From: Candidatus Moraniibacteriota bacterium
GTDB taxonomy: Bacteria > Patescibacteriota > Minisyncoccia > Moranbacterales > GCA-2747515
DNA length: 64,000 nt
Direction of reading: 5' to 3'
Assembly: GCA_046116545.1 (NCBI GenBank)
Contig: CP175956.1
Coordinates: forward strand, 449,734-513,733
Below are positions 40,651-62,273 of the stretch, piece by piece. The notes under the pieces are model-generated. The model was given only the letters and a program-made list of their open reading frames with translations. It searched no databases and was not told the DNA's origin. Numbering within the stretch: the first letter of the stretch is position 1; each line of letters starts with the position of its first letter. Made by a program: the position numbers and the translations under genes.

Positions 40651-41157
40651 TTAACTAATTACATACGCAACTAGACTTCTTCTTCCAAATGCAAATGCTT
40701 CAGATTTTGTTTCCATATAAATGTCAAAATGATTTCCTTTTATAGCACCTCCACGATCTTCACATGTATATATACCCATGCCTTCGATATGAATTTCAGT
40801 ACCAAACTCATATCCTCGTGGACAGGCAAGTGTATGTTTTTCTTTTACCATATTTCCACTTGCTGTTATACCATCACTTTTTCCACATTCATCTGCTGCA
40901 GCTGTATATGCTGATGCATTAATTGTAAATTTTTCTGGTATTGGCTCTACATATTGTGCTTTTTTATATTCTCCATTTGCTAATCCACAAACTATCCCTC
41001 CACCGTCTATATTTGTATATGTATTTATCTTATTTTCTGTTGTACTTGTAGTGTTTTTTGCATTTACTGTAATAACTGTAAATACACTTATGATTACTAT
41101 AAATACTATATATCTCATTAATGAGACTAAATTATTAACATGCCCACGATACTTCAT
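40651..41157 (-). CDS. 3D-domain (MltA/YuiC-like) secreted cell-wall protein
   Basis: Signal or anchor, then ASAYTAAADECGKSDGITASG ... CEDRGGAIKGNHFDIYM with conserved Asp residues. Confidence 0.6.
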   Translation of the reverse strand: MKYRGHVNNLVSLMRYIVFIVIISVFTVITVNAKNTTSTTENKINTYTNIDGGGIVCGLANGEYKKAQYVEPIPEKFTINASAYTAAADECGKSDGITASGNMVKEKHTLACPRGYEFGTEIHIEGMGIYTCEDRGGAIKGNHFDIYMETKSEAFAFGRRSLVAYVIS

Positions 41158-45837: not shown

Positions 45838-46041
45838 AACTATTTTATAATTAATTTATAGTATATAGTATACAGTGTATTATATACTATGTCAATTAAC
45901 CATTTAACTCTTTTATTCACAAGGACATCTATAGTACATATAATAATACTATGGATGTATTTTTAGTTTCACCTCAGCACAAACCTTTATTTAAAAGAAA
46001 TTTCATATTACATTATATGGAATTCAAAAAAGTTTTTATAG

Positions 46042-46645
46042 TTATCCACTTATCAACAAGTTATCCACTTTTTCAATAATATATTAATTTCATATTAGTT
46101 ATTTATAAGGACATGTCCTTGAGGCTGTCCTCGTATTATATATACATAATGGGTACAAGGAACAATACTACAATGAGTGCTAGTTATTTAGAAATGGTAT
46201 GAAGAAATATTATAAAATATCGTCTTTGCGAGTAGTAGTATTCTTTATCATGATCTACGAAGCAATATCAATAAGATTACTTCACATTATTATATTGAAA
46301 ATAGCTTTTATCTGCAAAGACAATGCTATTTTTCAAAACTAATTATACAAAAAGTTTATTGAAAACTTATACTTACTACGTTTTAAACGCACTTACTAGT
46401 TATGCTACTAGTTTTTAAGTATAATAAAAAACTAGGAGGGACATTGTTTCTTGAGATAAAAAAATATAAGATTTTTGCATTATTTACACTTTTTCCTTTT
46501 TAAGTTTATGGTTATCAACAGAAAACTGTGGATAACCTGTTAATTATGTGGATAACTTCTTGTGGATAACTTTGTATATTCTTGTGCACAATATTCCATT
46601 GTTGTGGATAACTATACATTATTTACACTTTTTTAGTTATCCACA
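46042..46645. promoter_or_regulatory. Putative chromosomal replication origin (oriC): a DnaA-box cluster in a 1.4-kb AT-rich intergenic region
   Basis: TTATCCACT at 46042 and 46061; TGTGGATAA at 46527, 46547, 46561 and 46613; TTATCCACA at 46637; TTATCAACA at 46512. An AT-rich DUE-like stretch lies at 46738-46790. Genes to the left run on the minus strand and genes to the right run on the plus strand. Confidence 0.6.
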
Positions 46646-47277
46646 TTTAGCAACACATATACACACCCTTACACACATGTCTTATTTTTGTGTTATTTAC
46701 TACATTTTTCCACAATATTCACTTATACATACAGTAATAGTAATAATAAATTATATATATAATAAGTTATTATATTACAGATTCATTCTATGTCTCAAAA
46801 TATATATCAACTAAAAAACATCTCCGATTCATAACCATCTATTAAAATAAAATTGGAGTAGTTATTATTTAGATTTAATAGTGTAATCTTACAGAGAAAA
46901 GATTTTTAATATAATAAATAATGAAATTAGTTATCACATGTTTTTTTTCTAGTAGGATTAATATTATTTACTTATCTATTTAGTATATAAAATCATTTAT
47001 ATGGAAACTAAACTATAATAGTTCAATAATAGACTAACATATTGTTATGTTGCAGCTAATAAATAAAATAGGCACATAAACAGTCAGTATATGAAAGCTA
47101 AACATTTTCAGAATAATATATTATTGAAGTTAGTTTCAAATTAAGATTTGATATAAACTGTACAATTATGGTATTGACAAAATATATAAAGTATGCTATA
47201 GTTTAATGTTGTTGAGATAGTTCTCTAAAAATTTAAGATAAATCTATTATTTCGTCTATTGGCGAAAAGGGGATGTT

Positions 47278-47859
47278 ATGAAAACTTTAAAAGTTATAGT
47301 TTTTGCTCTAATCGCTGTTGTTTCTCTTTCTACCACTCAAGCAGTTGCTGGATGGTTTGGTGGAGATAATCTTTTTCCAGAAGCTGCTATTGAAGTAGGT
47401 ATCCGGAAAGCGGTATTTCAAATCACTAAAGATTATTCTGATTGGGGTAAAACAACTGATGTAGTTGATATTGAAATTCATCAGAAATATCGCACCAATC
47501 AAAAAAAACTTGCAAAGCTGAAGCAGTTGTATTATAAAAAGGGTGTAGAAGTACCAAAGGGAGTTAGGCGAGTTTTTTCTAATATTGGATTATATAAAAG
47601 TAATGATGATTTCCAAGAAGAACTTCTTAGTGTTGCATTTACTGCTAATTTTATTGCTGAGGGTAAAAAACATGAGATTGTTGCTAATTTCTTATTTACT
47701 AAATATCCTCAAGAAGATAGTATAAGATATTTGAATTGGGTGGTATTTGCTTGGACAGATAAAAATCCAGAACAAGTGGATGATACTAATTATGATGAGT
47801 TTAGAGAAAATGCTAAAGAATCTATCAACATTTTTGAAGAAATTATAGTGATTAAGTAA
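47278..47859 (+). CDS. Secreted hypothetical protein (first gene of the T4SS-like locus)
   Basis: Signal peptide MKTLKVIVFALIAVVSLSTTQAVA in 193 aa. Confidence 0.45.
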   Translation: MKTLKVIVFALIAVVSLSTTQAVAGWFGGDNLFPEAAIEVGIRKAVFQITKDYSDWGKTTDVVDIEIHQKYRTNQKKLAKLKQLYYKKGVEVPKGVRRVFSNIGLYKSNDDFQEELLSVAFTANFIAEGKKHEIVANFLFTKYPQEDSIRYLNWVVFAWTDKNPEQVDDTNYDEFRENAKESINIFEEIIVIK

Positions 47860-47876
47860 TAATGTGAAAATTATTA

Positions 47877-49946
47877 TTGAAACCACTGCAAATAAATCTA
47901 TTTGCAGTGGTTTTTGTTTTTTTTGAATACATGGTATTATATTTATATCTAAAAAATATATTTAAAAATGTGAAAAAAAATAATAAAATAAATAAATATC
48001 TTATATATATAACATCATTTTGTTTTATATTTTCATTTTTATTCAGTCTTAATTTTGATAATTATAGTGAAAATCAGCAAAATATTTTCAATGATGTTTA
48101 TGCAGCTAAAGCAGCTCAGGGTGCAGCAGGAAATGCTTCAGGAGGTAATAATGTAGCAAGTCCAACTAGTTATGATGTGGATGATGACACATATTTAAAT
48201 TTACCGTCCATGGTTTTTGCAATCGTTCGTTTTTTTTCTTGGTTAATTACATTTTGTGCATCACTTATAGAATGGACATTACAGCCAGCTTTCATGACTG
48301 GGCTTATGGAAAATACTGCTGTTAAAACTGGGTGGACTACAGTTCGCGATTTTTTAAATATATTTTTTATATTTTTTCTACTATTTAGTGCATTTGCAAC
48401 TATTTTTCAAGTTTCAAAATATCATATCAAAAGTACATGGGTAATGATTGTTGTAATGGCATTGATGGTTAATTTTTCATGGCCTATAGGTAGGGTTATT
48501 ATAGATATTTCAAATGTTACAATGACCTATATTATGGGAGATACTAAATCAGGTGGATTATCATCGGCTCTGGGTAAAAATTCACATTTTGCAGCGTTAG
48601 TTGTAGGTCAAGAAGGTCCAGAGGTTAAATTCGACAGTGAGGTTGACTGGGTTCCAATTTTTATGGGTGTATTAACTAGTTTTTTATTTTTAGTAACTAT
48701 AGGAGCAATTGCTTTAATATTAGTAATTCGAGGTATAGTGTTAGCTGTTCTTATGGTTTTTGCGTCAGTTGGTTTTGTATTAGCTGCATTTCCATCAACT
48801 AGATCATATGCAAATAGTTGGTGGAGTAGTTTGGTGAAATATGCAATGATAGGTCCAATATTATTATTTATGTTAATATTATCAATTAACATGTTATCTG
48901 CTGCGGAAAGTAGTAATTTTGTGAGTAGTGCACCTGGTTCTACTGGTAAGACAGGTGATGCAATAAAAGAATTAATGAAATACACCATATCACTTATTGT
49001 TTTGTGGTCTGGAATAATAGCCGCTGGAAAACTAGGTGATGGAGCGTCTAGCATGGTAGTTGGAAAAGCTGGTGCAGCTGTACGTGGTATGGGTAATAAA
49101 TTGAAAAAAAGTGGTGTTAGTACTGGGAAATTTGTAGGTAGAACAGGTGCTAATACAGCCGATTCAATTAGCGGTGGACGAATTAGTAGTGGTATAGCAA
49201 AAGTTCATGGGGTTTCTGATGGATGGAAAAAACGATTTAATAATGCTGAAGAGGGTAGAAAAAAACGTTATAATGAAACCAAAGAAAATATGTCAGCTAG
49301 AACAGAAGCACTTGCACACGATAAGGGTGGTATAGATGGTTATGGTGCTAATAAAAATGCTATTACAGCTCATGAAAATAAAAAAGTGGCAGAAATGAAG
49401 AAAAAACATAAAGAAGATAATACTGATGCTGTTACATTAGCTAATGAATTAGATGGTGCTGATAAAGTTAAAACTAGAGCAATAATAGAATCATTATCAG
49501 GAATGAAAGAAGGTGTTGATGAAAATGTTATTAAAAAAATGGTTAAGAGTGGTGATAAAATTAAAGGAAATAAAGTTCTAGAAAAAGCAATAACTAAAAA
49601 AGCAGCTGAAACTGGTAATTCTCATGTTGTATATGATAATGAATTAAATACACAATATAAAATGAAAGCAAAATCTGCAGGGAAAGATATAAGTCAATTA
49701 AATAGCATGGAAAGAAAAACTGTTAAGAGTAATGTATCTAAAGACGTATATAGTGGGATGGATGGTAAAACATTTGCAAAGCAAAAAGAAACGATTAAAC
49801 GAATTGATGAGAATAATGCAGGATTTCTTGCAATTGGAGAAGATTTACAAGGAAAACTAGAGAGAGCATCATTTGCAAAAGAAATGCAAAATGTTGATAG
49901 TGAAACATATGAAAGATTGCAAAATATTAATGATACTCATTTATAA
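47877..49946 (+). CDS. VirB6/TrbL-like polytopic membrane protein with a long hydrophilic C-terminal tail
   Basis: At least 7 predicted TM helices in the first 400 aa, a Gly-rich loop, a roughly 290-aa charged C-terminus, and genomic context next to VirB3/VirB4-like genes. Confidence 0.4.
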   Translation: MKPLQINLFAVVFVFFEYMVLYLYLKNIFKNVKKNNKINKYLIYITSFCFIFSFLFSLNFDNYSENQQNIFNDVYAAKAAQGAAGNASGGNNVASPTSYDVDDDTYLNLPSMVFAIVRFFSWLITFCASLIEWTLQPAFMTGLMENTAVKTGWTTVRDFLNIFFIFFLLFSAFATIFQVSKYHIKSTWVMIVVMALMVNFSWPIGRVIIDISNVTMTYIMGDTKSGGLSSALGKNSHFAALVVGQEGPEVKFDSEVDWVPIFMGVLTSFLFLVTIGAIALILVIRGIVLAVLMVFASVGFVLAAFPSTRSYANSWWSSLVKYAMIGPILLFMLILSINMLSAAESSNFVSSAPGSTGKTGDAIKELMKYTISLIVLWSGIIAAGKLGDGASSMVVGKAGAAVRGMGNKLKKSGVSTGKFVGRTGANTADSISGGRISSGIAKVHGVSDGWKKRFNNAEEGRKKRYNETKENMSARTEALAHDKGGIDGYGANKNAITAHENKKVAEMKKKHKEDNTDAVTLANELDGADKVKTRAIIESLSGMKEGVDENVIKKMVKSGDKIKGNKVLEKAITKKAAETGNSHVVYDNELNTQYKMKAKSAGKDISQLNSMERKTVKSNVSKDVYSGMDGKTFAKQKETIKRIDENNAGFLAIGEDLQGKLERASFAKEMQNVDSETYERLQNINDTHL

Positions 49947-49954
49947 AATGAATA

Positions 49955-51511
49955 ATGCAAGATTATAAAGATCAAAAGAAATACTACCCCACATTAGTAT
50001 CAGATATACAAGGAGTGTCAGATAAAAATGGATTTGAAAGAATTCAAAAAATAAAAGCACTACCACAAAAAACACAAGATATTTTATTTTCAGATAAAAT
50101 TATTGATGTTATTTATGATATAGAAAGAAGATATTATTTATCAGATGAAAATACGGAGGGAATTTCGAGATCGATTAGACAATATTTTCTTAGAGAAATT
50201 ACACAGGAAGGATTTATTGAGAAATTAAGTATATCATGTAATATTTCAAATGCTGATGCTATAAAATTATTACATGTTATTAATAGTGTTAGTGTAAAAG
50301 TAGAACAAAAAGAAAAAAAACAAATTAAAAAAATAAATTTAGATAAAAATAAATTTAGTGTAATTTTAAAAAAATATCCTAAAATTTTAGAGCAAAAAAT
50401 AACAAATAATAAAATAACAAATCCAAAAACAGGAGAACAAGTACAACCAACATTGAAGAATTGGATTAGAATGTATGAAATAGAATTTGGTGCTAGTGGA
50501 CGAACCATGATGAATAGGGGGGACTTTATGTTTCAATCCAGTGTAACTAGAGGTTTAAATGATAATGAAAAACAAGTAGTATCACAGTTATTGAAAAGTA
50601 AGGATGAAAATAGTGAAGTATCTGTTGACATAGATAAAAGTGAAATTGTTTTTGAAAATATTGTATTGAAGAGTGATAGTGATATAAATAAAACATTAAG
50701 GCAGACACCCAAGTCTATACCAACACAACAGATAAATAAGTCTGTCATAATGAAACAAATACAAAATTCTGTTCCAATGCAACAAACACGTAAAGCTGTT
50801 TTTGCACAGAAAAACAATAAAAACACAGACTTAAATACTGATTTAAATCAAAAAAATATTAACAATGAGTTTACAAAAGTAAATAATACTAATTCAAAAC
50901 ATAATTTTGATAATATAAGGCAGCAAAATAGTGATATAGGACAGGTTGATGAATTGAAAAATAAACTTGCAAATAGTCAAAAACAGCTAGAAAAATTAGA
51001 GACTGAAATTATAGGTGGTGAAAATAATAGTCAGTATGAACAACAGATGAATAGACGACAAAAGAACTATCAAAAACCACCCCTTAATCCCCTCCTTAAA
51101 AAGGAGGGGAGGCAAGTTGCTTCACAAGAACTATCCTCGATGGAGCAAATTACTTCTCAAAAAATAGTACCGATGAGACAAACCAGTTTTCAGAAAGAGC
51201 CACAATCAGATATTGAAAAAGAAATATTGAAAAATAGGGCAGAAATGAATAATGAAGTAATTGTGAATGAATTTCAGAAAGTAGATGATGGTCATGTTGG
51301 GATTCAGTCAAATTTAATTACATCAAAAAAAGTACAAAATACTAAAAAGAAGAATAATATAAACTTAATAAAGACAAATAAAAAACAAAAACCTAATAAA
51401 TATATAAAACAAGATGCAATAAACAAAGTTGAAAAAGTTGAAAATAGTATAAATAATGTTAGTGGTAATATAACATTTAGCTCTAAACATAGGATGCCTG
51501 GTGAAAGTTAA
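49955..51511 (+). CDS. Hypothetical hydrophilic Q/N/K-rich protein
   Basis: 518 aa with no TM helix and coiled-coil-like segments. Confidence 0.4.
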   Translation: MQDYKDQKKYYPTLVSDIQGVSDKNGFERIQKIKALPQKTQDILFSDKIIDVIYDIERRYYLSDENTEGISRSIRQYFLREITQEGFIEKLSISCNISNADAIKLLHVINSVSVKVEQKEKKQIKKINLDKNKFSVILKKYPKILEQKITNNKITNPKTGEQVQPTLKNWIRMYEIEFGASGRTMMNRGDFMFQSSVTRGLNDNEKQVVSQLLKSKDENSEVSVDIDKSEIVFENIVLKSDSDINKTLRQTPKSIPTQQINKSVIMKQIQNSVPMQQTRKAVFAQKNNKNTDLNTDLNQKNINNEFTKVNNTNSKHNFDNIRQQNSDIGQVDELKNKLANSQKQLEKLETEIIGGENNSQYEQQMNRRQKNYQKPPLNPLLKKEGRQVASQELSSMEQITSQKIVPMRQTSFQKEPQSDIEKEILKNRAEMNNEVIVNEFQKVDDGHVGIQSNLITSKKVQNTKKKNNINLIKTNKKQKPNKYIKQDAINKVEKVENSINNVSGNITFSSKHRMPGES

Positions 51512-51784
51512 ACAAACATGCGGATAGAGTCATGAATCTTGTTCTATAAAAAATTTATCATCAAGAATTTTTTTGTAAGGAGAGTGTTATTAAGTTGTTC
51601 GTTTGAGAAGATTATTTCAGGAATTTAGACGTTTGTTAGTATAGTCTAGATTCCGGATAAATTTATTTGTACATTATTGCTAAATACTCTGATACAAATA
51701 ATATTTTCTGGAATGACAATTTGGCGTGATTATAATAAAATTCTGTAAATCATTTATTAGAACAAATCACATAACCTTTTTATT

Positions 51785-51808
51785 GTCATTCCCGCGTAGG
51801 CGGGAATC
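51785..51808. repeat. GC-rich palindromic element, family copy 4 (canonical form)
   Basis: gtcattcccgcgtaggcgggaatc, an 8-bp stem ATTCCCGC/GCGGGAAT with a 4-nt loop. Confidence 0.65.
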
Positions 51809-52012
51809 TAGGATAATACTAATAAGCTTTGTGATTATCGTTTATTAATCTGGTGTACACATCACTTTATAGAAAACTTCCTAGATCCCCACATTCACTG
51901 GGATGACAAACTGAATGATGAAAATATGTGAGGATAAACTTTTGTAATATTTTTTTGGAATAAAAAAGTGTAGTGTGATATAATAAATATATTGAAAAAA
52001 TAAAAATAAAGT

Positions 52013-52471
52013 ATGCAAATTGTACCACAGTATATTGACATTGAAGATAAGATAGCAGGTCCACTTACATGGAAACATATAGGATGGTTATTTGGTGGTG
52101 GTGCAATTCTATCATTTTTATTTGTTACATTGGATAGAATTACATTTATGATTATAGCAATTCCATTTGGATTGCTTGTAATAGCAATGGCATTTTATAG
52201 ACCACAAGGAGTTCCTCTTGTGGAATTTATGGGATATGGATTTTCATATATTTTTAAACCAAAAAGATATCTATGGTCAAGAGATTTTGAAGCAGGTAAT
52301 CAACAGAGTGATAAGATTGTTGAAAGTGTTGTAAATGTGAAGCAAAAGGAAAAAATGACTATGGATGAAATAACAGCAATATCACAAACATTAGATAGTG
52401 GTGGTGTCCAGAGGAATAAACAGATGCAAGAATTAATAAAGAAAAATATAAGTACTGCAAATAAAAAATAA
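52013..52471 (+). CDS. VirB3/PrgI-like small membrane protein
   Basis: 152 aa, two TM helices (IGWLFGGGAILSFLFVTL, FMIIAIPFGLLVIAMAF), located immediately upstream of the VirB4 gene. Confidence 0.4.
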   Translation: MQIVPQYIDIEDKIAGPLTWKHIGWLFGGGAILSFLFVTLDRITFMIIAIPFGLLVIAMAFYRPQGVPLVEFMGYGFSYIFKPKRYLWSRDFEAGNQQSDKIVESVVNVKQKEKMTMDEITAISQTLDSGGVQRNKQMQELIKKNISTANKK

Positions 52472-52475
52472 AAAT

Positions 52476-53168
52476 ATGAGTTTTTTTGGTTCTAATAGTG
52501 AAAATGTAAATAATTCAGGTATCAGTACATTGAAGTATGTTGATATTAAAACAATAAAAGATGGTGTTGTTGTATTGAAAAATGGAGGAATGAGAGCGGT
52601 TCTTTTAGTTTCATCAATCAATTTTGATTTGAAATCATCAGATGAGCAAGTTGCTATTATTGGAGCTTATCAAAACTTTTTAAATTCACTGGATTTCCCA
52701 GTGCAAATAATAATAAGTTCAAGAAAATTGAATATAGGTCCATATACGGAAATACTAAAAGAAAAAGCAAAAGAACAAAGTAATGAATTATTAAAAATTC
52801 AAATCATAGAATATAGAGAGTTTATATCAACACTTGCGGATGTTACTAATATTATGAATAAATTCTTTTATCTAGTTGTACCATTTGCTCCGGTTGAAGA
52901 TAAAAATAGTGGAGTTTTAGATAAAATAACAAATGCAATAAATCCATCTCAAAGCATTACTCAACACAATGAATTATTTGAGACTTATAAAAATCAGTTA
53001 TGGCAAAGAGTGGATCATGTAGCAGCAGCACTTGGTGGCACAGGACTGCATTTTACAACATTAAATACAGATGAATTAATAGAATTGTATTATAGTGCTT
53101 ATAATCCATCAGAATATGCTCAGGTTACAATTAAAGATATTTCTAAATCAGATATTAAACAATTATAG
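52476..53168 (+). CDS. VirB4/TrbE-family ATPase, N-terminal segment (ends at an in-frame TAG)
   Basis: KDGVVVLKNGGMRAVLLVSSINFDLKSSDEQVAIIGAYQNFLNSLDFPVQIII resembles the VirB4/TraE N-terminal domain and is in the same frame as 53172..54980. Confidence 0.6.
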   Translation: MSFFGSNSENVNNSGISTLKYVDIKTIKDGVVVLKNGGMRAVLLVSSINFDLKSSDEQVAIIGAYQNFLNSLDFPVQIIISSRKLNIGPYTEILKEKAKEQSNELLKIQIIEYREFISTLADVTNIMNKFFYLVVPFAPVEDKNSGVLDKITNAINPSQSITQHNELFETYKNQLWQRVDHVAAALGGTGLHFTTLNTDELIELYYSAYNPSEYAQVTIKDISKSDIKQL

Positions 53169-53171
53169 TAT

Positions 53172-54980
53172 ATGTTTTCAAAAAAACAAAAAGAAACAAA
53201 AAAGAATAATGTAATAGAAAATGAAGAGTTTTATCAAAGTGGTGTAGCGACTGTAAGAGGATTGATAGCTCCAAGTGCATTAGAAATAAAAACAGATCAT
53301 ATTCAAATTGGTAATGTAATGTCTTCGACTATGTTTGTTATTGCATATCCAAGATTTCTGAACGATAATTGGTTTTCTCCAATTATTAATATAGATTTTC
53401 CAATGGACACAGCAATGTTTATTCATCCAGCAGATACTAGAGAGGTGTTGAAAAATTTAAAAAAAAGTGCAGCTCATGTGCATTCGCAGATAAATATAAA
53501 TGCAAATAGTGGTAAAGTGATGGATCCAATGCTTGAAACTGCTGTGGATAATATTGAAAATTTAAGAGTTAGTTTACAACAAGGTACAGAAAGATTTTTT
53601 CAATTCGGACTGTATTTAACTGTTTTTGCCACTGAAGCAGCTGTATTACAAAAAAACAAAAGTGAAATACAAGCAATATTAGAGGCGCAGCTAATTTATA
53701 CAAAGCCAGCAGTATTACGTATGGAACAAGGATTTATGTCGACAATTCCACTAGGTGTTGATAAATTAAGTGCAGGTACAAATCTAAATACAGCACCACT
53801 TTCAACAACATTCCCCTTTGTCTCTTCAGATTTATCTTCGAATGAGGGTATTTTATATGGAATTAATAGACATAACAATAGCTTGATATTGTTTGATAGA
53901 TTTAATATGGAAAATGCAAATATGGTTGTATTTGCAAAATCTGGTGGTGGTAAAAGTTACTTTGTTAAGTTGGAGTTGTTACGTGCTATGATGCTGGGTG
54001 TAAATATAATAATAATTGATCCTGAGAATGAATATAAGCATTTATGCGGAACTGTAGGTGGAACTTATGTAAGAATATCACTTGGATCACAGGCTCATAT
54101 AAATCCATTTGAGTTACCAAAAATTCCAGAAGATGAAAAACCAGAAGATGTTTTTAGAAATACAATTGCTAGTCTGATAGGACTATTACATATAATGCTC
54201 GGTAGTGTGACACCAGAAGAAGATACTGTTCTAGAACGTGGTATAAGAGAATCATATGCGGTTAGAGATATAAATGAAAAAAGTAATTTTGGTGTCATAC
54301 CACATAAAGGATATCCTACAATGTCAGATTTATACGAGGTCTTGAGGAGTATGGATGGTGGTGATTCAATTGCTAAAAGGTTATCCAAATATACAGATGG
54401 TATATTTGGAGGATTTTTGAATAACCCAACAAATATTGAAGTTGATAATCAAATGGTTGTATTTAATATTCGGGATCTTGAAGAAGAATTGAGACCAATA
54501 GCAATGTATATGGTACTTCAATTTATTTGGAATGAGATGCGTACAAATCTTACAAGACGTATCGTTGCAGTAGATGAAGCCTGGGTTATGATGCAAAATG
54601 ATGATGCAGCTGCTTTTATGTTTGGTATAGCAAAAAGGTGTCGTAAATATTATACAGGACTTACGACAATTACTCAGGATGTTAGTGATTTTATGTCCAG
54701 TAGATATGGGAAGCCAATTGTAACAAACTCATCATTACAACTATTGTTAAGACAATCCCCAGCTTCTGTAGATGTAATTACTGAGACTTTTTTCTTAACA
54801 GATCATGAAAAATTTTTATTATTAGAAAGTGGTGTGGGTGAGGGTATCTTATTTGCAGGACCAAAGCATGCTGCAATTAAGGTTATAGCATCCTATAGTG
54901 AAGATCAGATTATAACGTCAGACCCAAGACAATTAGAAGAAATCGAAAAAGCAAAAGCAGAGCTAGAAAATGAAGAATAG
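53172..54980 (+). CDS. VirB4/TrbE-family conjugal-transfer ATPase, C-terminal segment (ATPase domain)
   Basis: Walker A VVFAKSGGGKSYF and Walker B RRIVAVDEAWVMM (the VirB4 hallmark DEAW). Confidence 0.8.
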   Translation: MFSKKQKETKKNNVIENEEFYQSGVATVRGLIAPSALEIKTDHIQIGNVMSSTMFVIAYPRFLNDNWFSPIINIDFPMDTAMFIHPADTREVLKNLKKSAAHVHSQININANSGKVMDPMLETAVDNIENLRVSLQQGTERFFQFGLYLTVFATEAAVLQKNKSEIQAILEAQLIYTKPAVLRMEQGFMSTIPLGVDKLSAGTNLNTAPLSTTFPFVSSDLSSNEGILYGINRHNNSLILFDRFNMENANMVVFAKSGGGKSYFVKLELLRAMMLGVNIIIIDPENEYKHLCGTVGGTYVRISLGSQAHINPFELPKIPEDEKPEDVFRNTIASLIGLLHIMLGSVTPEEDTVLERGIRESYAVRDINEKSNFGVIPHKGYPTMSDLYEVLRSMDGGDSIAKRLSKYTDGIFGGFLNNPTNIEVDNQMVVFNIRDLEEELRPIAMYMVLQFIWNEMRTNLTRRIVAVDEAWVMMQNDDAAAFMFGIAKRCRKYYTGLTTITQDVSDFMSSRYGKPIVTNSSLQLLLRQSPASVDVITETFFLTDHEKFLLLESGVGEGILFAGPKHAAIKVIASYSEDQIITSDPRQLEEIEKAKAELENEE

Positions 54981-54997
54981 ATATATAGTTATAAAAT

Positions 54998-55630
54998 ATG
55001 TCAGATGTGACTGTACAAAATAATATAAATCAACATGCACTCGAGCAACAACGTAATCGAGATTTTAAGGATGCTCGTATTGCTGAGCAGAAAAAACAAC
55101 AAAAACTTAAAAAGGAGCAGTATGCAGGAGGTCTTGCAAGTGCAGTAAAAGCATCACATGTTAATACACAAAAAACAACATCAAATAAAACAGATGCTCA
55201 AACAAAAAGAGAAATAAGACAACGACAAAGTTGGTATGCTAAAATAATTAAAGCACGAAAAAGAAAAAAATCAAAAAAAATACTGACCAGAAAATATGAA
55301 AAAATAATCAAAGGGTATAGTAGAATATCATGGATATTATTGTATACAGCCGCAGTAGCAGACGCTTTTTTTGATTTAATTACTGTACCAATACTGTCTA
55401 CTTTTATGTCTATATGTTTTTCACTTTATTTAAACTTAGCACTTTGGAGTGTTGGAGAAAAAAAAGATAGAGCAAAAAGAAGGCTTATCAGAGCATCTGT
55501 CTCAGTATTAGATTTAATACCAATTATAAATTTAATTCCTTTTTCAATTATGATAGTTTATAAAACACAAACAAGAGAACAAAAACGAGTTAAAAGAGCA
55601 AAAAAAATGATTGAAAAAATAAACAAATAA
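54998..55630 (+). CDS. Hypothetical basic protein with two C-terminal TM helices
   Basis: 210 aa, K/R/Q-rich N-terminus. Confidence 0.4.
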   Translation: MSDVTVQNNINQHALEQQRNRDFKDARIAEQKKQQKLKKEQYAGGLASAVKASHVNTQKTTSNKTDAQTKREIRQRQSWYAKIIKARKRKKSKKILTRKYEKIIKGYSRISWILLYTAAVADAFFDLITVPILSTFMSICFSLYLNLALWSVGEKKDRAKRRLIRASVSVLDLIPIINLIPFSIMIVYKTQTREQKRVKRAKKMIEKINK

Positions 55631-55678
55631 AAGTGTGGTATAATTTAAAATAAATAATGAAAATAAAATAAAATATTT

Positions 55679-56320
55679 ATGAATAATGAATTAAAGACAA
55701 ATATAATAACAACAGTGTTTGCAATAACATGTCTTATCTTGTATCTCGCATTTCCTTTTGGTGATTTGGAATTTGAAAATTGGCTTGGTATGTTATGTGT
55801 TTTATTTATTTTGCCTATTTTATATTCAAAAATTATTTTACATAAAACAAGTAGGGATATAGGATTTGGTAAAATTAACATGGATAAAAGAGGTTGGTTC
55901 TTTCTAGCTAGCTCTGTCATTGTTGGAGGATTGATTAGTTTTTTGATTATTAGTATGGAATTTGGCAGGAATGCATATATTGACAGTCTATCACCTACAA
56001 TAGCAACACATTTTGGAGCATTTATGTTTTATGAGCTTATTTTCATGGCATTATCGATGTTTCTGTTTACCTTTTTTTCCTTTGGCTTTATATATTCTAT
56101 AAAATACAAAAATGAAATATTCTCAAAAATATTCTCAATAGCAGTATTTATAGTATTTTTAGCAGATTTTTATATAAGTGCAATATTATGGATTCCATTA
56201 CTTGCTCCGGTGTTTTTTATTAAACAAATTAGGTATAATAAAAATATAATTTTTATGTTTTTAGCACTATTTATAATAGCTCTGATGATAGATACATTAG
56301 TGATTAAATCAATCTTGTAA
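55679..56320 (+). CDS. Hypothetical integral membrane protein
   Basis: 213 aa, about 6 TM helices. Confidence 0.4.
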   Translation: MNNELKTNIITTVFAITCLILYLAFPFGDLEFENWLGMLCVLFILPILYSKIILHKTSRDIGFGKINMDKRGWFFLASSVIVGGLISFLIISMEFGRNAYIDSLSPTIATHFGAFMFYELIFMALSMFLFTFFSFGFIYSIKYKNEIFSKIFSIAVFIVFLADFYISAILWIPLLAPVFFIKQIRYNKNIIFMFLALFIIALMIDTLVIKSIL

Positions 56321-56331
56321 ACAAAATAATC

Positions 56332-59300
56332 ATGCAAACAAAAAAAACAATAGCAATAACACTAATATTAATACAAATAATAATACTTCAACCAATAAGC
56401 ACATATGCTTTTTTAGGGTTACCAAGTAATCCATTGAGTGGCGGTGGAGGGAGCGGAATGTCAGGAGATATAAGAAGTGGTATAAACGATTTTTTAGAAA
56501 AAGATTTAAATATAAATGTAAAAGATGGTCTAAGACCACTGACAGAGAGTATAAATACAATAGATAGGAAAGGAGAAATGCCAGAAGTGTCATTAAGATT
56601 TTCATCACAAAGTCCAAAAGAAGGAGAGAAGATAACAGTAAGTGCAGATGTAACAGGTGTAAAGAATCCAAATGATGCATACTATGTATGGTATTTAAAA
56701 AGAAAAGGAGATAGCTATGATGATATAGATAAATTACATCGTCAAGCAGTAAGTGCACAAGCAGCATTGTACTATGATCCAGAAACTCTAAATCAAAAAT
56801 TCAATCAAGGGATAGTAGCTTCAAAAGGAGATGATTATGATGGATATAAACCAAAGATGGGAGGAGATAATGGGATACTAAGAGGAGCAACATCAAAATC
56901 AGGTTCAAGCTTACTGCAACAACACGAAACTGCTACTGGAAACATCAAGGACGCTCATCAAGGAATAATAGATAGTTTACCAGGATTTGGAATATTTGAT
57001 GTATTGGCTCCAGGAACATCTCAAATAATGGATGCACAAAATCAAGTTAGAGATAGTCTATTAAATTCAACAGGAACAAAAGCAAATGACACAAAATCAG
57101 CATCAGGTAATAGGGATTATTGTTATATTTATAATTCAAAAACAGGTAAGCAATATGAATTAGGTGATGCACATGATGATTCAGCAATGGGCTGTCCAAC
57201 TGGATATATAGCAAAATGCATGCAAGAGAATAATGATTTAATGTGCCCAGTAGCAGTTCCAGGAATGACAGGAACTTCAACAGCAAGTAGTTCAGGTGGT
57301 GGCAATACATCATCCTCTTCAACTTCAACAACAATAGCAGGAGGAAATGGAGATAGATTCAGTTATCTAACAAGATGTCTAGATACAGAAATAAAACCAA
57401 CTTGTGATGTAAACACAGGAAAACTTCATTGTTCACAAGCAGATAAAGGAAATGTATTTCAAGCAGATAAAGCTTATTCATGCGATGGAACAAGTTGTAG
57501 TTCATATAAGACAGATGGTCATTGTTGTGAAGTGTTTGATACAATAGAGAAATGTAAAGCAGATAAGGATACAAAAATATGTACAATGGGAAGTCAAATG
57601 ATGGCAGTGAGTTATAGTTATGATCAACCAATAACTACTCCAACTCCTTATTGTGTTAAACAAGATCAAAAAACTGGGGAAATTTGGAAGGATCCTAATG
57701 TTAATGGGTGTGGGCTATATTCAGCAGATGGCAAATACCCAGGACCAACAGAAGGCCGTGTCGCAGGAACTAATCCAAGCTTTGATTTTTTTCAGCCAGA
57801 TGGAACGCCGTATAATGCACCATTTACAGGAATTATTCTTTGTCCAGACTCTCCAAATCTATTAACTTGTGATAATAATTTTAAATATCATGGAATGGAT
57901 GGAGCAAAACCAGTTTTTGAGAGACCTTTAGGTCAGGGCGTGGGTGCGTCAATGACAATTACATGTCAGGATGATGTTGGGGTTACATGGACATATGATA
58001 TAAGTAATGATAATACTGTTCAGTTTGCGGGTTGCCCTGATGCAAAGCCAATTAGCAGAGGTTGTTTTATTGATAAGGATAAAAAGATTTTAGATTTATT
58101 GGAACCCGAAAAAGCCTGTACCCTATCAACACCAAAGGACTCAGGGTGTACCGAGAAACAACATCTGTTTCCAGAGGAATTAAATCTAGGATTCTTTCCA
58201 GCATCAATAGAGGCACAGTATGGAACAAATCCAATAGATGCACAAACAACACCATTAGCAATAAATGATGGAGCATTGGCAGTAGGACTAGGAGTAAAGA
58301 ACTTTGAATGGAAATATAAAGCAGGAGATGAGATAGCTGTAGTAGTAGAAGGGATGGGACTGGGAATGACAAAACATGAAGATGCAACATATCAAACAGT
58401 TTTTGCAGTACCAAAAGAGGGATGTCAAAAAGCAATAGAAAATGCTTCAAAAGAAAGTTATGAAGAAACAGCAAAGAAAAAAGTAGTAACAATAGAAGTA
58501 GCAGAGATGAATCCAAGAGATTGTGTAACAGCAGAGATATTCCAAAAACCAGGAACGTCACAGTTTGATGCATTAAATGTAAATGTAAACCATGCTTCTC
58601 CAAGTGCACAAAACACATCTGTAGCAAGTGGGCTGAGTCAACCAATGCAAATAACAGCACATGCAAATGGTGTAAAAGGAGGAGGAATATCAAATTCAGA
58701 ACATCTGTACTATGAATGGAGTATTGTGTGTGGAGGAAAAACAATAGATTTAAGTAAAATGGAAGGACTGTCAAAAACAGAAGGAATGAATCTACCATCT
58801 CTAAATCTAACAGCAAACTTTCCACAGGAATGTGTAGATGCAGGAGAAGTAATAGTAAAAACAAAAATAAATGAACCTAGAGCTGGAGGAGGATCAAATT
58901 TTGGACAATCAGAAACAAAAATCAAGATTTATGATGTAAAAGATAGCCCACTTAAAACATTCAAGACAGAAATAGTAGAAGACACAAAATTCCAAAAAAC
59001 AGCAACAGCAGTATGTGATGTTGGGATAGATAAAACTTTGTGTAGAGTGATGAATAATGAAGTAATAGCTATAGCAGCAACAAAAGATGATGGAACAATA
59101 TATGATGGAACAATGCTGTCTTGGACAGTAGATGGAAAAGCATATAATTGTGATTCAAGTATATCTCCAGATTGTAATGATAGAACAAACTCAGGAACAA
59201 TAATAATTCCAATGACAGGTAGTGATGGAGATTTAGTAACAGTAACTGCAAGTATAAATGATGTAACAGGTGATAAAAACAATACACAAGTTCTATCAAG

Positions 59301-59853
59301 AGTATTTAGAGTAACAGATTCACAAATATCAATAACTCCTGTTAGTGGGGCTGTTGTGAAGGAGTTGGGGAGCTACGAGGATTTAAATGGAAAGAAATTT
59401 ACAAAACAATCAACAACAACTCTACAAACAATAAAGGGAACAAGTATAACTTTAAAAGCAGTTCTATATCCAGAATTTTTAAATAAAGGTGATGAAAAAT
59501 ACACATGGACAATAGATGGAAAAGATTACGCAAATACAAATCCAATAACATTTGTTGCTGATAAGGATGTTAGTGTTGGGGTGAAGTCAGAACAAGCTTT
59601 GAAAAGAGAAGATAGAAAGGCATTGAGTGATGCTTTTGGAATAATACAATCTCAAACAACAAAAGAAACCCTCTCAAAGACAATCCAAATAGAATTATCA
59701 GATTCAGTAAAATTAACAAAGTTGCAAAATGGTTTTTTTGCAACAGTAGCACATAATACTCCACAATATTTATTATTCATTTTGAAAATGACACTTATGA
59801 TGGGAATAATGCTTTTCATTCCTTCTTTGATATTGGGGTTTAAGAGAACGTAA
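56332..59853 (+). CDS. Giant (1173-aa) Cys-rich protein with a signal peptide and a C-terminal membrane anchor, probably cell-surface
   Basis: Signal peptide MQTKKTIAITLILIQIIILQPISTYA, more than 40 cysteines, and a C-terminal TM helix LLFILKMTLMMGIMLFIPSLILGF. Confidence 0.6.
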   Translation: MQTKKTIAITLILIQIIILQPISTYAFLGLPSNPLSGGGGSGMSGDIRSGINDFLEKDLNINVKDGLRPLTESINTIDRKGEMPEVSLRFSSQSPKEGEKITVSADVTGVKNPNDAYYVWYLKRKGDSYDDIDKLHRQAVSAQAALYYDPETLNQKFNQGIVASKGDDYDGYKPKMGGDNGILRGATSKSGSSLLQQHETATGNIKDAHQGIIDSLPGFGIFDVLAPGTSQIMDAQNQVRDSLLNSTGTKANDTKSASGNRDYCYIYNSKTGKQYELGDAHDDSAMGCPTGYIAKCMQENNDLMCPVAVPGMTGTSTASSSGGGNTSSSSTSTTIAGGNGDRFSYLTRCLDTEIKPTCDVNTGKLHCSQADKGNVFQADKAYSCDGTSCSSYKTDGHCCEVFDTIEKCKADKDTKICTMGSQMMAVSYSYDQPITTPTPYCVKQDQKTGEIWKDPNVNGCGLYSADGKYPGPTEGRVAGTNPSFDFFQPDGTPYNAPFTGIILCPDSPNLLTCDNNFKYHGMDGAKPVFERPLGQGVGASMTITCQDDVGVTWTYDISNDNTVQFAGCPDAKPISRGCFIDKDKKILDLLEPEKACTLSTPKDSGCTEKQHLFPEELNLGFFPASIEAQYGTNPIDAQTTPLAINDGALAVGLGVKNFEWKYKAGDEIAVVVEGMGLGMTKHEDATYQTVFAVPKEGCQKAIENASKESYEETAKKKVVTIEVAEMNPRDCVTAEIFQKPGTSQFDALNVNVNHASPSAQNTSVASGLSQPMQITAHANGVKGGGISNSEHLYYEWSIVCGGKTIDLSKMEGLSKTEGMNLPSLNLTANFPQECVDAGEVIVKTKINEPRAGGGSNFGQSETKIKIYDVKDSPLKTFKTEIVEDTKFQKTATAVCDVGIDKTLCRVMNNEVIAIAATKDDGTIYDGTMLSWTVDGKAYNCDSSISPDCNDRTNSGTIIIPMTGSDGDLVTVTASINDVTGDKNNTQVLSRVFRVTDSQISITPVSGAVVKELGSYEDLNGKKFTKQSTTTLQTIKGTSITLKAVLYPEFLNKGDEKYTWTIDGKDYANTNPITFVADKDVSVGVKSEQALKREDRKALSDAFGIIQSQTTKETLSKTIQIELSDSVKLTKLQNGFFATVAHNTPQYLLFILKMTLMMGIMLFIPSLILGFKRT

Positions 59854-59880
59854 GTGTTTTATAAAATAAAACAAAAAAAT

Positions 59881-60390
59881 ATGAAAACTTATATTTTAAT
59901 ATTATTAATATCAATGAGTTTGTTGACATTTATGGGAGAGGTTAATGCAGCCAACTACACACTATTAGAAACAATAGGGAAAAATACAGGTTCAGTAGAT
60001 TTTCCAACCTATATAACAAACCTACATAAGTTTGCAGTAGGATTTGTAGCTCTTGCAGCACTTCTCATGATTACATTAGGAGGATTTGCATATATGACTG
60101 CTGCAGGCAATCAAGCACAAGTAGGAACTGCAAAAAAGTTAATAATAGATGCATTATTAGGACTTATAATAGTATTTATTTCTTGGTTAATTTTAAATAC
60201 AATTAACCCTGATTTATTGAACACTGAAAATCCCAGTATGAAAAAATTACAGGACGGGGCTAATAACAATGGTAATAATAGCACTAGTAATAATAATGTT
60301 GGTGGGGGTACAACATTAGATTCAAGTGGTTTAGGTACAGATGGAAGCACAACAGATACTTCATCAGGAACAGGTTCTCCAGCAGCATAA
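59881..60390 (+). CDS. VirB2/TrbC-like pilin candidate 1, with a Ser/Thr/Gly/Asn-rich C-terminal tail
   Basis: Signal peptide MKTYILILLISMSLLTFMGEVNA, then two hydrophobic helices separated by TAAGNQAQVGTAKK. Start is the ATG at 59881, not the GTG at 59854. Confidence 0.5.
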   Translation: MKTYILILLISMSLLTFMGEVNAANYTLLETIGKNTGSVDFPTYITNLHKFAVGFVALAALLMITLGGFAYMTAAGNQAQVGTAKKLIIDALLGLIIVFISWLILNTINPDLLNTENPSMKKLQDGANNNGNNSTSNNNVGGGTTLDSSGLGTDGSTTDTSSGTGSPAA

Positions 60391-60978
60391 ATGTAACTTA
60401 TAAAAAGATTTAATAGAATTATATGAAAAAAATTAGCATAAGCATATTTCTTTTTTTAGTAATTTCAGTAAATACTGCAAATGCAGATGATTTTCAAGAT
60501 GCAGTTAATGCAGAAAACTCTAATAACGCAACAAATCCTGTATCTAGTTTACCTAGTTATAATCCAAATGCATCATTGGGTCCTGCTACAGGAACATCAA
60601 CAATTAATGGTCAGAACTCAGGACAAACTGTAAATACATCACCCACAGCAAATACAGCAGGTGCAGCCAACTACACACTATTAGAAACAATAGGGAAAAA
60701 TACAGGTTCAGTAGATTTTCCAACCTATATAACAAACCTACATAAGTTTGCAGTAGGATTTGTAGCTCTTGCAGCACTTCTCATGATTACATTAGGAGGA
60801 TTTGCATATATGACTGCTGCAGGCAATCAAGCACAAGTAGGAACTGCAAAAAAGTTAATAATAGATGCATTATTAGGACTTATAATAGTATTTATTTCTT
60901 GGTTAATTTTAAATACAATTAACCCTGATTTATTGAACACTGAAAATCCCAGTATGAAAAAATTACAGGACGGGGCTA
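59946..60978 (+). repeat. 317-bp perfect direct repeat (59946-60262 and 60662-60978) spanning the two pilin-like genes
   Basis: By eye the two copies are identical base for base, and the flanking sequences diverge immediately. Confidence 0.8.
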
Positions 60979-60986
60979 GTAAGTAG
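60423..60986 (+). CDS. VirB2/TrbC-like pilin candidate 2, with an N-terminal S/T/N-rich extension
   Basis: Signal peptide, about 70 aa low-complexity extension, then a core 100% identical to candidate 1. Confidence 0.5.
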   Translation: MKKISISIFLFLVISVNTANADDFQDAVNAENSNNATNPVSSLPSYNPNASLGPATGTSTINGQNSGQTVNTSPTANTAGAANYTLLETIGKNTGSVDFPTYITNLHKFAVGFVALAALLMITLGGFAYMTAAGNQAQVGTAKKLIIDALLGLIIVFISWLILNTINPDLLNTENPSMKKLQDGASK

Positions 60987-61022: not shown

Positions 61023-62273
61023 TTATTTTTGTAAGCCAAATAGAAGTAGTATCCAAAATATAATTGATAAATCATTTTTCCAGAAAGGTGTGTCAAAAAG
61101 ACTTGTTAGTAAAATTGTTAAAAATGCGGCAATATAAAATAAAATTGTTGCATTTTTTGTTTTTATATAGGAGCTAGCTGAAAGGTACAGCCATCTAGAG
61201 CATAAAAGACAAAAAAATAAAACTGTAAAAAAACCTCCAGAAGTCCATAATGTTAATAATAGATTATGAGGAGTTGGAGCTGACCAATGTAGGTAGGGCG
61301 GGTAATATCTTTGAGCATCTAGGTAGATTTGTTGAAAGTCATTGATTCCAGATGTGTTTATAAGTGTATTTTTTTGGAGGTGATTTGTGGCAACTGTCCA
61401 GATTTCATGTCTGGATGATAGAGAACTTCTAGAAAAATCTGGATTTATATTTGAGATTTTGTGATATGTAATAAATAAGATTGATAATATAAAAAATAAT
61501 CCCAGAATAAAGAGCATTAGAGATTTCGTAGTGGATGGACATGTCCGTCCACTACGAATATAGTAATTTTTTATTAGAATAATAGATATAATAAATAATA
61601 TAAAAATGAAAACAAAAGAGGAAGTAAGGGAGTTTGTGAAAAATAGAACAATGCAGGTTAAAATAACTGTAGTTATAGAAAAGACTTTCAAATATTTATT
61701 TTTTTGTTTCCAACTATTTGCAAGAGTAATAAAAATAAGTGGAGCAATAAACATTGCTAGATGATTGGGCGAGGGGTAAAAGGCAGCTAATCTGCCATCA
61801 AATGTTGTGTTATCTAAAAAAAGATATATTAAAGTTATAGTGGTTACGAAAAATAAAATACTGACAAGTAAATTCTGGATATAATAAAAGATTTTTTTGT
61901 GTTTTGAAATGTGTATATGTAGTAAAAAAGCTGTAAGTAGGGGTAGCAATAGCCATTCTAGAAATACACCCAATCCATGGATAGTTGGATGTAATAGTAG
62001 TGATGGTAAGAAAGATAGAACAAATAAAAAAGAAAATGTCCAAAAAATAGAATTTTTTTTGAAAGTTTGAGGAATACTTTGAAAGTTTGAATATAATAAT
62101 ATTGTACAGAGGATAAATAAGTTTATAGTTAGAATGCTTATGGATATTGAAAATAAATTTAAACGTATAAAATATAATGAAATCGAAAAGAATGTTACAC
62201 AAAGGAGTAACTTGATATAAGATAAATCTGACTGTAGTGGGATATTGAATTTTTCTTTCAATTGTGTAAACAT
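61023..62273 (-). CDS. Polytopic membrane protein, weakly O-antigen-ligase/Wzy-like
   Basis: 10 or more TM helices; loop motif SSRHEIWTVATNHLQ resembles Wzy_C R-x-x-(L/I)-W. Confidence 0.4.
   Translation of the reverse strand: MFTQLKEKFNIPLQSDLSYIKLLLCVTFFSISLYFIRLNLFSISISILTINLFILCTILLYSNFQSIPQTFKKNSIFWTFSFLFVLSFLPSLLLHPTIHGLGVFLEWLLLPLLTAFLLHIHISKHKKIFYYIQNLLVSILFFVTTITLIYLFLDNTTFDGRLAAFYPSPNHLAMFIAPLIFITLANSWKQKNKYLKVFSITTVILTCIVLFFTNSLTSSFVFIFILFIISIILIKNYYIRSGRTCPSTTKSLMLFILGLFFILSILFITYHKISNINPDFSRSSLSSRHEIWTVATNHLQKNTLINTSGINDFQQIYLDAQRYYPPYLHWSAPTPHNLLLTLWTSGGFFTVLFFCLLCSRWLYLSASSYIKTKNATILFYIAAFLTILLTSLFDTPFWKNDLSIIFWILLLFGLQK

Follow-up and report, generated by a model that had tools for sequence, protein, structure and literature searches.

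The stretch of contig CP175956.1 analysed here (64 kb, hereafter the window) carries a co-directional block of eleven plus-strand open reading frames (ORFs), 47278-60986 (47.3-61.0 kb). The block encodes a type IV secretion system (T4SS) of the Patescibacteria type; this identification is nearly certain. From the names attached to close homologues and related loci (Moranbacteria, Paceibacteria or Patescibacteria), the host genome was judged to be that of a low-GC Patescibacterium of the Moranbacteria type. In the part of the block that runs from the PrgI gene to the pilin genes, the genes are separated by gaps of 3-48 nt. The features of the block and of the region upstream are as follows (TM, transmembrane).

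45838-47277, no strand: non-coding region of 1.44 kb, predicted replication origin oriC (DnaA boxes, AT-rich stretch, GC-skew minimum)
47278-47859, plus: 193-aa protein, secreted or anchored by its N-terminus, with a signal-like segment (aa 1-26)
47879-47914, plus: hairpin resembling a terminator (16-bp stem, then a T-run), between the 193-aa and VirB6 genes
47931-49946, plus: extended VirB6/TrbL-like polytopic membrane protein (PF04610), ORF open from TTG 47877
49955-51511, plus: 518-aa Q/N-rich soluble protein (19.9% Q+N), lineage-specific
51512-52012, plus: intergenic gap of 500 bp with a promoter-like site and a palindromic repeat
52013-52471, plus: PrgI/VirB3-like two-TM protein (PF12666, 34.6 bits, cut-off 27)
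52476-53168, plus: TrsD-like, detached VirB4 N-terminal domain, 230 aa (NCBIfam), between PrgI and VirB4
53172-54980, plus: VirB4 ATPase motor, 602 aa, C-terminal two thirds (PF19044, 94 bits)
54998-55630, plus: 210-aa basic membrane protein (3-TM), lineage-specific
55679-56320, plus: 213-aa membrane protein of CPBP/Rce1 fold, ~6 TM, catalytic motifs absent (pseudo-protease)
56332-59853, plus: 1173-aa secreted, C-terminally anchored giant protein with 30 Cys, lineage-specific
59881-60390, plus: VirB2-like pilin 1 (PF18895, 32.5 bits, cut-off 26.6)
59946-60245, plus: first copy of a perfect direct repeat, 300 nt, shared pilin core
60423-60986, plus: VirB2-like pilin 2 (PF18895, 30.7 bits, cut-off 26.6)
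60662-60961, plus: second copy of the perfect direct repeat, 300 nt, shared pilin core

A preceding sequence-only reading had described this block. The ORFs that it listed were all found on the plus strand at the coordinates it gave, but the TrsD-like ORF was missing from its list. Composition and TM analysis bore out the features it had pointed to (the Cys-rich giant protein, the Q/N-rich protein, the basic charge and the TM counts). A check with profile hidden Markov models (HMMs) placed each of its VirB6, VirB3/PrgI, VirB4 and VirB2-like pilin assignments above the curated cut-off. Two of its gene starts are probably wrong, though both ORFs are real. VirB6 probably starts at ATG 47931 and not at the nominal TTG 47877, since the hairpin at 47879-47914 overlaps the latter; pilin 1, a PF18895 protein, probably starts at ATG 59881 and not at GTG 59854.

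The best characterized component is VirB4, which is encoded in two pieces. The 602-aa motor matches the NCBIfam CD1110 family (NF045971) with 342.6 bits (cut-off 325) at model positions 172-729 of 752 only, and it covers positions 276-892 of the 894 positions of the Mbov_0397 VirB4 model. The TrsD-like ORF matches positions 95-278 of the Mbov_0397 model (NCBIfam, E 4e-9), so that the motor takes over where this match stops; it also matches positions 10-92 of the CD1110 VirB4 model and the TrsD/TraD model NF041427 (E 3e-5). Because the coverage of the models is complementary, the two ORFs add up to one VirB4, split at the boundary of the N-terminal domain. Alignment of profiles by hhalign (99.8%) linked the TrsD-like ORF to a Pontibacillus plasmid gene that lies upstream of VirB4; a search of PDB sequences with its family profile gave nothing meaningful. 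In a comparison set of 80 related loci from distinct species, retrieved by VirB4, a TrsD-like gene adjoins virB4 in 74. Since the split is kept in these loci and in megaplasmids of Bacillota and Actinomycetota, it is the native architecture. A recoded stop or a pseudogene as the origin of the split was rejected: the TAG stop of the TrsD-like ORF is followed three bases later by the ATG of VirB4, and the same split recurs in the 74 loci and in Bacillota.

The motor itself has the motifs named in the earlier reading, Walker A (AKSGGGKS, aa 255-262, nt 53934-53957) and Walker B with DEAW (VAVDEAW, aa 465-471, nt 54564-54584). Among proteins of known structure it matched VirB4 of PDB entry 4ag5 (E 7e-50) and TrwK/VirB4 of R388 (PDB 7o41, E 1.4e-10), with aa 122-557 of the query corresponding to TrwK aa 300-741. 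We retrieved 8000 VirB4 homologues of ~600 aa. The best 120 were 68-100% identical, and the named ones among these came from Moranbacteria, Parcubacteria or Patescibacteria; the best matches outside Patescibacteria were 27-35% identical. These values suggest that the protein belongs to the Patescibacteria VirB4 group, a placement made by similarity and not by a tree.

The remaining core genes are arranged around VirB4 in an order that recurs among relatives. VirB4 is present in all 80 loci, TrsD in 74 and PrgI in 63, in each of which PrgI/VirB3 stands immediately upstream of TrsD-VirB4; VirB6 lies upstream of VirB4 in 42 loci, and pilin-domain genes were found nearby in more than 40. The window VirB6 passed the cut-off of PF04610 (TrbL/VirB6, 25.9 bits) from either start, with 26.5 bits from the TTG and 26.9 bits from the ATG. 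The same domain was matched by 8 of 30 members of the VirB6 family (best E-value 1e-8), and the family profile found nothing meaningful among PDB sequences. The protein ends in a hydrophilic tail of ~290 aa, 33% of which are charged.

The two VirB2-like pilins share one core. Pilin 1, which also matched the Mbov_0395 pilin-like model NF045849 (E 6e-6), consists of a signal peptide, the pilin core and a 42-aa C-terminal tail rich in S/T/N/G, and in pilin 2 a signal peptide and a 59-aa N-terminal extension rich in S/T/N precede the core of pilin 1. This core, encoded by the 300-nt repeat, is 105 aa long and 100% identical between the two pilins. Such a pair is unusual, because the pilins of published Patescibacteria arrays have a mean identity of 25% and a maximum of 54% (PMC12102498; this source and PMC10633639 are cited throughout from excerpts of their text). 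In an independent assembly (GCA_008633325.1, locus L083, positions 440-480) the first core copy lacks 213 nt, a deletion that keeps the reading frame; this indicates either recombination between the cores in the population or unreliable short-read assembly at this point.

In related loci the pilin core is mostly N-terminal in longer proteins, with C-terminal extensions of 160-2000 aa and total lengths of up to 2141 aa (e.g. L012:10941-11894, L012:11899-12749, L031:13131-14765 and L069:12335-14818; also in L051, L073, L076 and L080). The two fusions of L012 carry a DUF2272/CHAP domain (E 3e-17) and an SLT lytic transglycosylase domain (E 6e-13), that of L031 carries Peptidase_C39_2, and LTD is among the other fused domains. 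The excerpts of PMC12102498 make no mention of pilin-hydrolase fusions. The VirB1 function that is absent from the window locus may be fused to the pilins in relatives.

Past the TAA stop of the giant gene, its reading frame stays open into the pilin 1 ORF (59851-59881). This continuity is probably coincidental, because the pilin domain of relatives is N-terminal, not C-terminal, to large passengers.

Two Wzy_C genes (O-antigen-ligase family; 61023-62273 and 62530-63792, both on the minus strand) converge on the pilin genes, and beyond them lie two family 2 glycosyltransferases (GT2) and a Wzx-like flippase (L082:4098-7112). Pilin O-oligosaccharyltransferases such as PglL and TfpO belong to the Wzy_C family. 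Glycosylation of the S/T-rich pilin tails is a speculative idea.

Sequence identity to the corresponding genes of the close relative L002 is very uneven along the block. VirB4 is 88% identical and TrsD 81%, followed by PrgI (55%), the 213-aa 6-TM protein (51%), the 518-aa Q/N-rich one (42%) and, at 33% each, VirB6 and the basic protein; the housekeeping neighbour RluD is 61% identical. The excess of VirB4 over RluD argues for strong purifying selection and not for decay. By the whole series, the cytoplasmic motor is very strongly constrained and the envelope parts evolve fast. Several metagenome-assembled genomes with a Patescibacteria-type locus bear GenBank titles such as Micavibrio, Bdellovibrionales, Pseudobdellovibrionaceae, Pseudomonadota or 'Pacearchaeota archaeon' (L002, L005, L006, L011, L018, L022, L030, L042 and L043; VirB4 52-89% identical); these titles are probably taxonomic mislabels of bins.

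Functions needed for conjugation were looked for with Pfam in window ORFs of at least 150 aa (two ORFs overlapping longer ones were left out) and, as precomputed Pfam matches of called genes, in flanks of ~6 kb on the left and ~3 kb on the right, ~73 kb in total. These scans gave no relaxase, VirD4/TcpA, VirB11 or VirB1 domain, in agreement with the absences listed in the sequence-only reading. With neither a relaxase nor a coupling protein within ~73 kb, its view that the block is not a standard conjugation module also stands. Pfam and NCBIfam recognised no hydrolase domain in any ORF of the locus. Among components of the Ced and ComB DNA-import systems, CedB gave 40.7 bits (cut-off 700) and CedD 13.6 bits (cut-off 600), and nothing else in the locus was recognisable as part of such a system.

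The surroundings of the block are those of an ordinary chromosomal region. Base composition of the window is ~30% GC, and the T4SS block has the same GC content as its surroundings. Housekeeping genes of the window include those for PNPase, S1, Cmk, TilS, FtsH, Ldh, NrdD, a radical-SAM protein, RluD, KsgA and Maf. There are nine tRNA genes, five of them clustered ~4 kb upstream of the block, and tRNAs were the sole matches in an Rfam scan of the window. The flanks recur among relatives, with RluD upstream in 6 loci and Wzy_C genes downstream in 7. Conserved flanks and matching GC content argue that the block is not a recent island. There is no adjacent integrase, the nearest gene of an integrase family being XerC/D-like and ~50 kb away; on these three grounds a recently integrated element was rejected.

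The sequence-only reading had also called the locus origin-proximal, and the non-coding region upstream supports this. Five perfect TTATCCACA DnaA boxes lie within 120 bp (46527-46645). At least five near-perfect boxes are situated at 46042-46069, 46512 and 46706, so that the cluster spans 46042-46714; in the whole window, 42 matches with at most one mismatch were counted vs 25.5 ± 5.2 in shuffled sequences. The boxes are followed by an AT-rich stretch (46800-47000, 18% GC), and the cumulative GC skew has its minimum at ~46.8 kb. The skew is still positive across the minus-strand genes at 61-64 kb, hence its signal is not merely an effect of the coding strand. DnaA boxes and the skew minimum thus sit 0.5-1.4 kb upstream of the first gene of the block, which adjoins the predicted oriC and is oriented in the direction of replication. 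In seven close relatives (L002, L004-L008 and L021) clusters of DnaA boxes were found 0.3-1.7 kb upstream of VirB6. No DnaA signature was detected in any frame of the window; 16 more distant Paceibacteria loci have a dnaA-like ORF, located 2-9 kb downstream of virB4.

Four proteins of the block (the Q/N-rich, the basic 3-TM, the 6-TM and the giant protein) have counterparts in no more than 11-15 of the 80 loci, all of them Moranbacteria-like and closest to the window. We found no description of this accessory set in the excerpts of PMC12102498 and PMC10633639; the lineage-specific genes are new details of a known system. In the Q/N-rich protein (13 loci, all close) a conserved N-terminal domain (aa 1-235) precedes a disordered linker, and after ~270 poorly conserved residues of low complexity there is an invariant C-terminal motif FSS..E (F508 S509 S510 ... 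E517) that could be a docking or secretion signal. It had no match in Pfam or among PDB sequences, including a search of PDB with the family profile. The 210-aa basic protein (11 loci, all close) contains 47 K+R vs 16 D+E, has a basic, cytoplasmic N-terminal half followed by membrane-spanning segments, and keeps the motif IDLIPIIN..P.

The family of the 213-aa protein is tiny (27 cluster representatives in 1.84 billion). The Rce1-like/CPBP domain PF02517 was matched by 5 of 24 relatives and not by the window protein itself, for which a test of the CPBP fold was positive, with the scaffold SpdC as the closest structure. The catalytic motifs EExxxR, FxxxH and HxxxN/D are not present in the window protein. 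It reads LFTFFSFGF where distant relatives carry YEFFFRGF, and its only histidines, at positions 55 and 111, are in no catalytic motif. SpdC is a non-catalytic scaffold for the membrane-anchored hydrolase SagB (bioRxiv 10.1101/2020.05.21.109470). Identity of the 213-aa protein to the Staphylococcus aureus SagB-SpdC peptidoglycan release complex (PDB 6u0o) is 14%, and the putative partner differs: here it would be the giant protein, which has its anchor at the C-terminus and in which no hydrolase domain is recognisable. The stop codon of the 213-aa gene and the start codon of the giant gene overlap as ATGA in 8 relatives, a translational coupling of the two genes. We infer that the two proteins form a scaffold-partner pair.

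The giant protein carries a signal-like segment at its N-terminus and, at its C-terminus, a TM segment with the conserved motif FFAT..N.P.Y..F.LKM, in which polar residues are conserved. Its family is confined to 15 Moranbacteria-like loci. No sequence match was found in Pfam, NCBIfam or PDB, the search of PDB with the family profile included. In a set of 5.8 billion proteins, single-sequence and profile searches gave the same three homologues, and the AlphaFold2 model built on the three-homologue alignment was unusable (mean predicted local distance difference test score, pLDDT, 28.8). Kinship with the giant pilin fusions of distant Paceibacteria was rejected, as the family HMM matched Moranbacteria-like loci only.

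The 193-aa protein at the head of the block is a doubtful member of the T4SS. A signal-like segment is present, in line with the earlier reading of it as secreted; its membership of the system is unproven because the gene has a promoter-like site of its own (TTGACA-17-TATAGT, 47174-47202), is followed by the hairpin and has no detectable homologue in the 80 loci. It had no Pfam match either. The same position in relatives is taken by unrelated small secreted ORFs, whose homology with the 193-aa protein was tried and rejected (hhalign probability 3%, signal peptide only). The gap before PrgI contains another promoter-like site (TG-extended TTGGAA-18-TATAAT, 51955-51984). Counts of promoter-like and terminator-like sites in the region do not exceed those in shuffled sequence, so the individual sites cited here are plausible, not proven. 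The same gap contains one copy (51786-51808) of a 23-nt palindromic element, TCATTCCCGCGTAGGCGGGAATC, that occurs three times in the window with 0-3 mismatches, while no copies are expected by chance; the other two (4475-4497 and 12399-12421) lie between ORFs by their coordinates. The element had no match in Rfam.

Several cell-wall enzymes encoded elsewhere stand alone and are not linked to the T4SS block: a 3D-domain protein (40651-41157, minus strand), a G5-DPBB (RpfB-like) protein (6423-7388, minus), a YkuD L,D-transpeptidase (30583-31812, plus) and, directly past the left edge of the window, a LysM-LysM-CHAP protein. In JGI assembly 3300082323, KsgA from the left of the window is on contig Ga0675941_000654 and the pilins from the right are on contig Ga0675941_000935, so the window stems from a different assembly in which the two parts are joined.

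Taken together, the locus is very likely a chromosomal, vertically inherited T4SS of the Patescibacteria type that derives from monoderm machinery of the mating-pair formation class FATA (MPF-FATA) and is no longer a conjugation module. In Patescibacteria, VirB4 forms a clade sister to monoderm MPF-FATA with TrsD as its most frequent neighbour; PrgI, VirB6 and arrays of VirB2-like PF18895 proteins accompany it, and relaxases are nearly absent (Quinonero-Coronel et al. 2025, PMC12102498). In the proposed machine, VirB6, VirB3, TrsD and VirB4 would make up a platform in the cytoplasmic membrane. VirB4, the sole ATPase, would extract pilin from the membrane, and the pilin would polymerise on VirB3/VirB6 into a pilus of the VirB2 type. 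The two Sec-exported pilins might co-assemble, given that their cores are identical, and their different S/T/N/G-rich tails, one N-terminal and one C-terminal, would then decorate the filament on the outside. A surface module, made of the catalytically dead SpdC-like CPBP scaffold, the coupled giant ectoprotein and the basic 3-TM protein, may serve passage through the wall and/or host recognition. Such a machine would make contact with a host cell and transfer material to or from it, and would not conjugate DNA. We regard assembly of a pilus as fairly probable, and to the same degree incline to a role in interaction with the host. Tn-seq (transposon sequencing) in Southlakia epibionticum, a Saccharibacterium, showed that epibiotic growth requires the T4SS genes SEML1_0006-0019, pilins included (Wang et al. 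2023, PMC10633639); essentiality of the genes with the pilin array is also given in PMC12857230. Reviews call the role of the T4SS in Saccharibacteria completely unknown, with effector delivery and nucleic-acid uptake as hypotheses (PMC12857230, PMC11665869).

Several points weigh against this reading. Neither a VirB8-like nor a VirB1-like component could be recognised among the genes of the locus; no ORF gave a sequence match to a VirB8-like (NTF2-fold) bitopic protein, the sole bitopic candidate being the 193-aa protein. A distant coupling protein is possible, because ~73 kb was examined and VirD4-like (T4CP, type IV coupling protein) genes, common in Patescibacteria, usually lie far from virB4 (PMC12102498). 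The region of the 300-nt perfect repeat differs between two assemblies. Given extensions of 160-2000 aa, the PF18895 domain could be a membrane anchor and not a polymerising subunit. We know of no biochemical demonstration of pilus formation by PF18895 proteins in any monoderm. An adhesin role of the giant protein is a guess.

The alternatives differ mainly in what is moved and in which direction. One version of the host-interaction reading, possible though rather unlikely, is that the pilus or channel would bring DNA, RNA or nucleotides of the host into the epibiont, similar to ComB of Helicobacter pylori or the archaeal Ced system. It would fit the missing relaxase and coupling protein, and the presence in the window of PNPase, the anaerobic ribonucleotide reductase NrdD and a radical-SAM protein. 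A T4SS has been proposed to replace the dispensable competence machinery as a source of nucleotides (PMC11665869), and host RNA uptake together with tubular structures, possibly T4SS pili, at the parasite-host interface was reported for a cultivated relative (bioRxiv 10.64898/2026.06.21.733656). However, the CedB match is at the level of the P-loop only, the locus has no component specific to ComEC, CedA or ComB, and the direction of transport is not readable from sequence; import appears somewhat more likely than export of DNA. A comparably low probability was assigned to an effector translocator that would export proteins into or onto the host, with the Q/N-rich protein or wall hydrolases as candidates. 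T4SSs that work free of a coupling protein do exist (Ptl and Brucella VirB; PMC12102498), the disordered linker and invariant FSS..E motif of the Q/N-rich protein would suit a secreted or docked substrate, and pilin domains of relatives are fused to SLT, DUF2272/CHAP and C39-like domains. Yet no effector domain is recognisable in the window locus, nothing comparable to the motif is known, and no chaperone or adaptor was identified.

It is improbable that the block is an ordinary conjugative or integrative element with its relaxase, oriT and VirD4 at other sites of the genome. VirB4 does score above the cut-off of the conjugative CD1110 family, there is the cluster of five tRNA genes upstream, and the usual distance of VirD4-like genes from virB4 would allow for it (PMC12102498). 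These points are outweighed by the lack of an integrase, relaxase or T4CP in the window and its immediate extensions (bar the remote XerC/D-like gene), by flanks kept across species and GC content equal to that of the surroundings, by a VirB4 more conserved than RluD, and by the count of only 109 relaxases among thousands of Patescibacteria genomes (PMC12102498). That the locus is a decaying remnant with no present function is hardly credible: VirB4 in two ORFs and the deletion in one pilin gene of the independent assembly could be taken for decay, but the split is native, as its recurrence shows, all ORFs are intact, and VirB4 and TrsD are 50-90% identical across the class.

A further idea, doubtful as a whole, extends the preferred reading of a host-directed T4SS: the Moranbacteria/Paceibacteria pilin might act as a carrier that presents wall-active or host-binding modules on the filament, making up an envelope-breaching 'feeding tube' that would extract host cytoplasm. 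It was suggested by the shared-core pilins, between which only the tails (possibly glycosylated) vary, by the fusion of relatives' cores to SLT, CHAP/DUF2272 and C39-like domains or passengers of 1000-2100 aa, and by the pairing of an SpdC-like scaffold with a giant ectoprotein.

No T4SS before that of Patescibacteria had been shown to be essential to its own carrier bacterium, and its role matters for understanding how a very large radiation of bacteria lives at the expense of other cells. The present locus is a clean and complete example of the Moranbacteria type. It offers several leads: the coupling of a giant surface protein to a CPBP-fold scaffold that is non-catalytic, pilins with one core and different surface tails along with wall hydrolases on the pilins of relatives, and a module on a Bacillota megaplasmid (one, from Pontibacillus, was checked) that could become a tractable model in a cultivable host. 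The observations on accessory proteins, pilin fusions and Bacillota homologues are of use as leads and do not amount to the discovery of a new kind.

Compared with the gram-negative VirB/Trw systems (MPF-T; R388), the window locus has a homologous VirB4 motor, VirB3, VirB6 and VirB2-type pilins, but no outer-membrane core of VirB7, 9 and 10 and no VirB5, VirB8, VirB11, VirD4 or VirB1 was recognised in it; its VirB4 is split and the cell envelope is monoderm. Likeness to monoderm MPF-FATA systems of the CD1110/CTn2 type extends to the motor, as VirB4 is 33-35% and the TrsD-like protein 30% identical to the nearest relatives outside Patescibacteria, which are on megaplasmids of Bacillota and Actinomycetota. 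Classical conjugative members of that class carry a T4CP, a relaxase and VirB8-like proteins, none of which was found in the window locus. Of the plasmids matching the TrsD-like protein, 67 of 91 were typed as non-mobilizable. A locus of this plasmid-borne kind is on the megaplasmid of Pontibacillus sp. ALD_SL1 (NZ_CP062975.1, 351801-361354, L081), typed as non-mobilizable as well. Its gene order (two PF18895 pilins, VirB6-like, VirB3-like, TrsD-like and CD1110-type VirB4) represents a module in common with the window, and the PF18895 pilins in it mean that, among monoderms, VirB2-like pilins occur outside Patescibacteria as well. The last gene of the Pontibacillus locus encodes a 1050-aa wall hydrolase (NlpC/P60 + M23), an analogue of VirB1; the window lacks it and has the CPBP-like, giant and basic proteins instead.

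The closest counterpart is the T4SS of the Patescibacteria clade itself, as described in the excerpts of PMC12102498 and PMC10633639. In contrast to that published picture, the window has the Moranbacteria-type accessory set of four proteins and identical pilin cores. Patescibacteria loci are close to dnaA in Paceibacteria and Microgenomatia (PMC12102498), whereas in the window the neighbour is an oriC with no dnaA; unlike in Southlakia, no peptidase or lysozyme gene follows virB4. The likeness covers the entire core: a VirB4 of ~600 aa preceded by TrsD and PrgI/VirB3, VirB6 upstream, tandem PF18895 pilins, no relaxase or T4CP nearby, and a chromosomal position close to the origin. This architecture was already published for Patescibacteria in 2023-2025, and the locus, which adds no new class, belongs with it.

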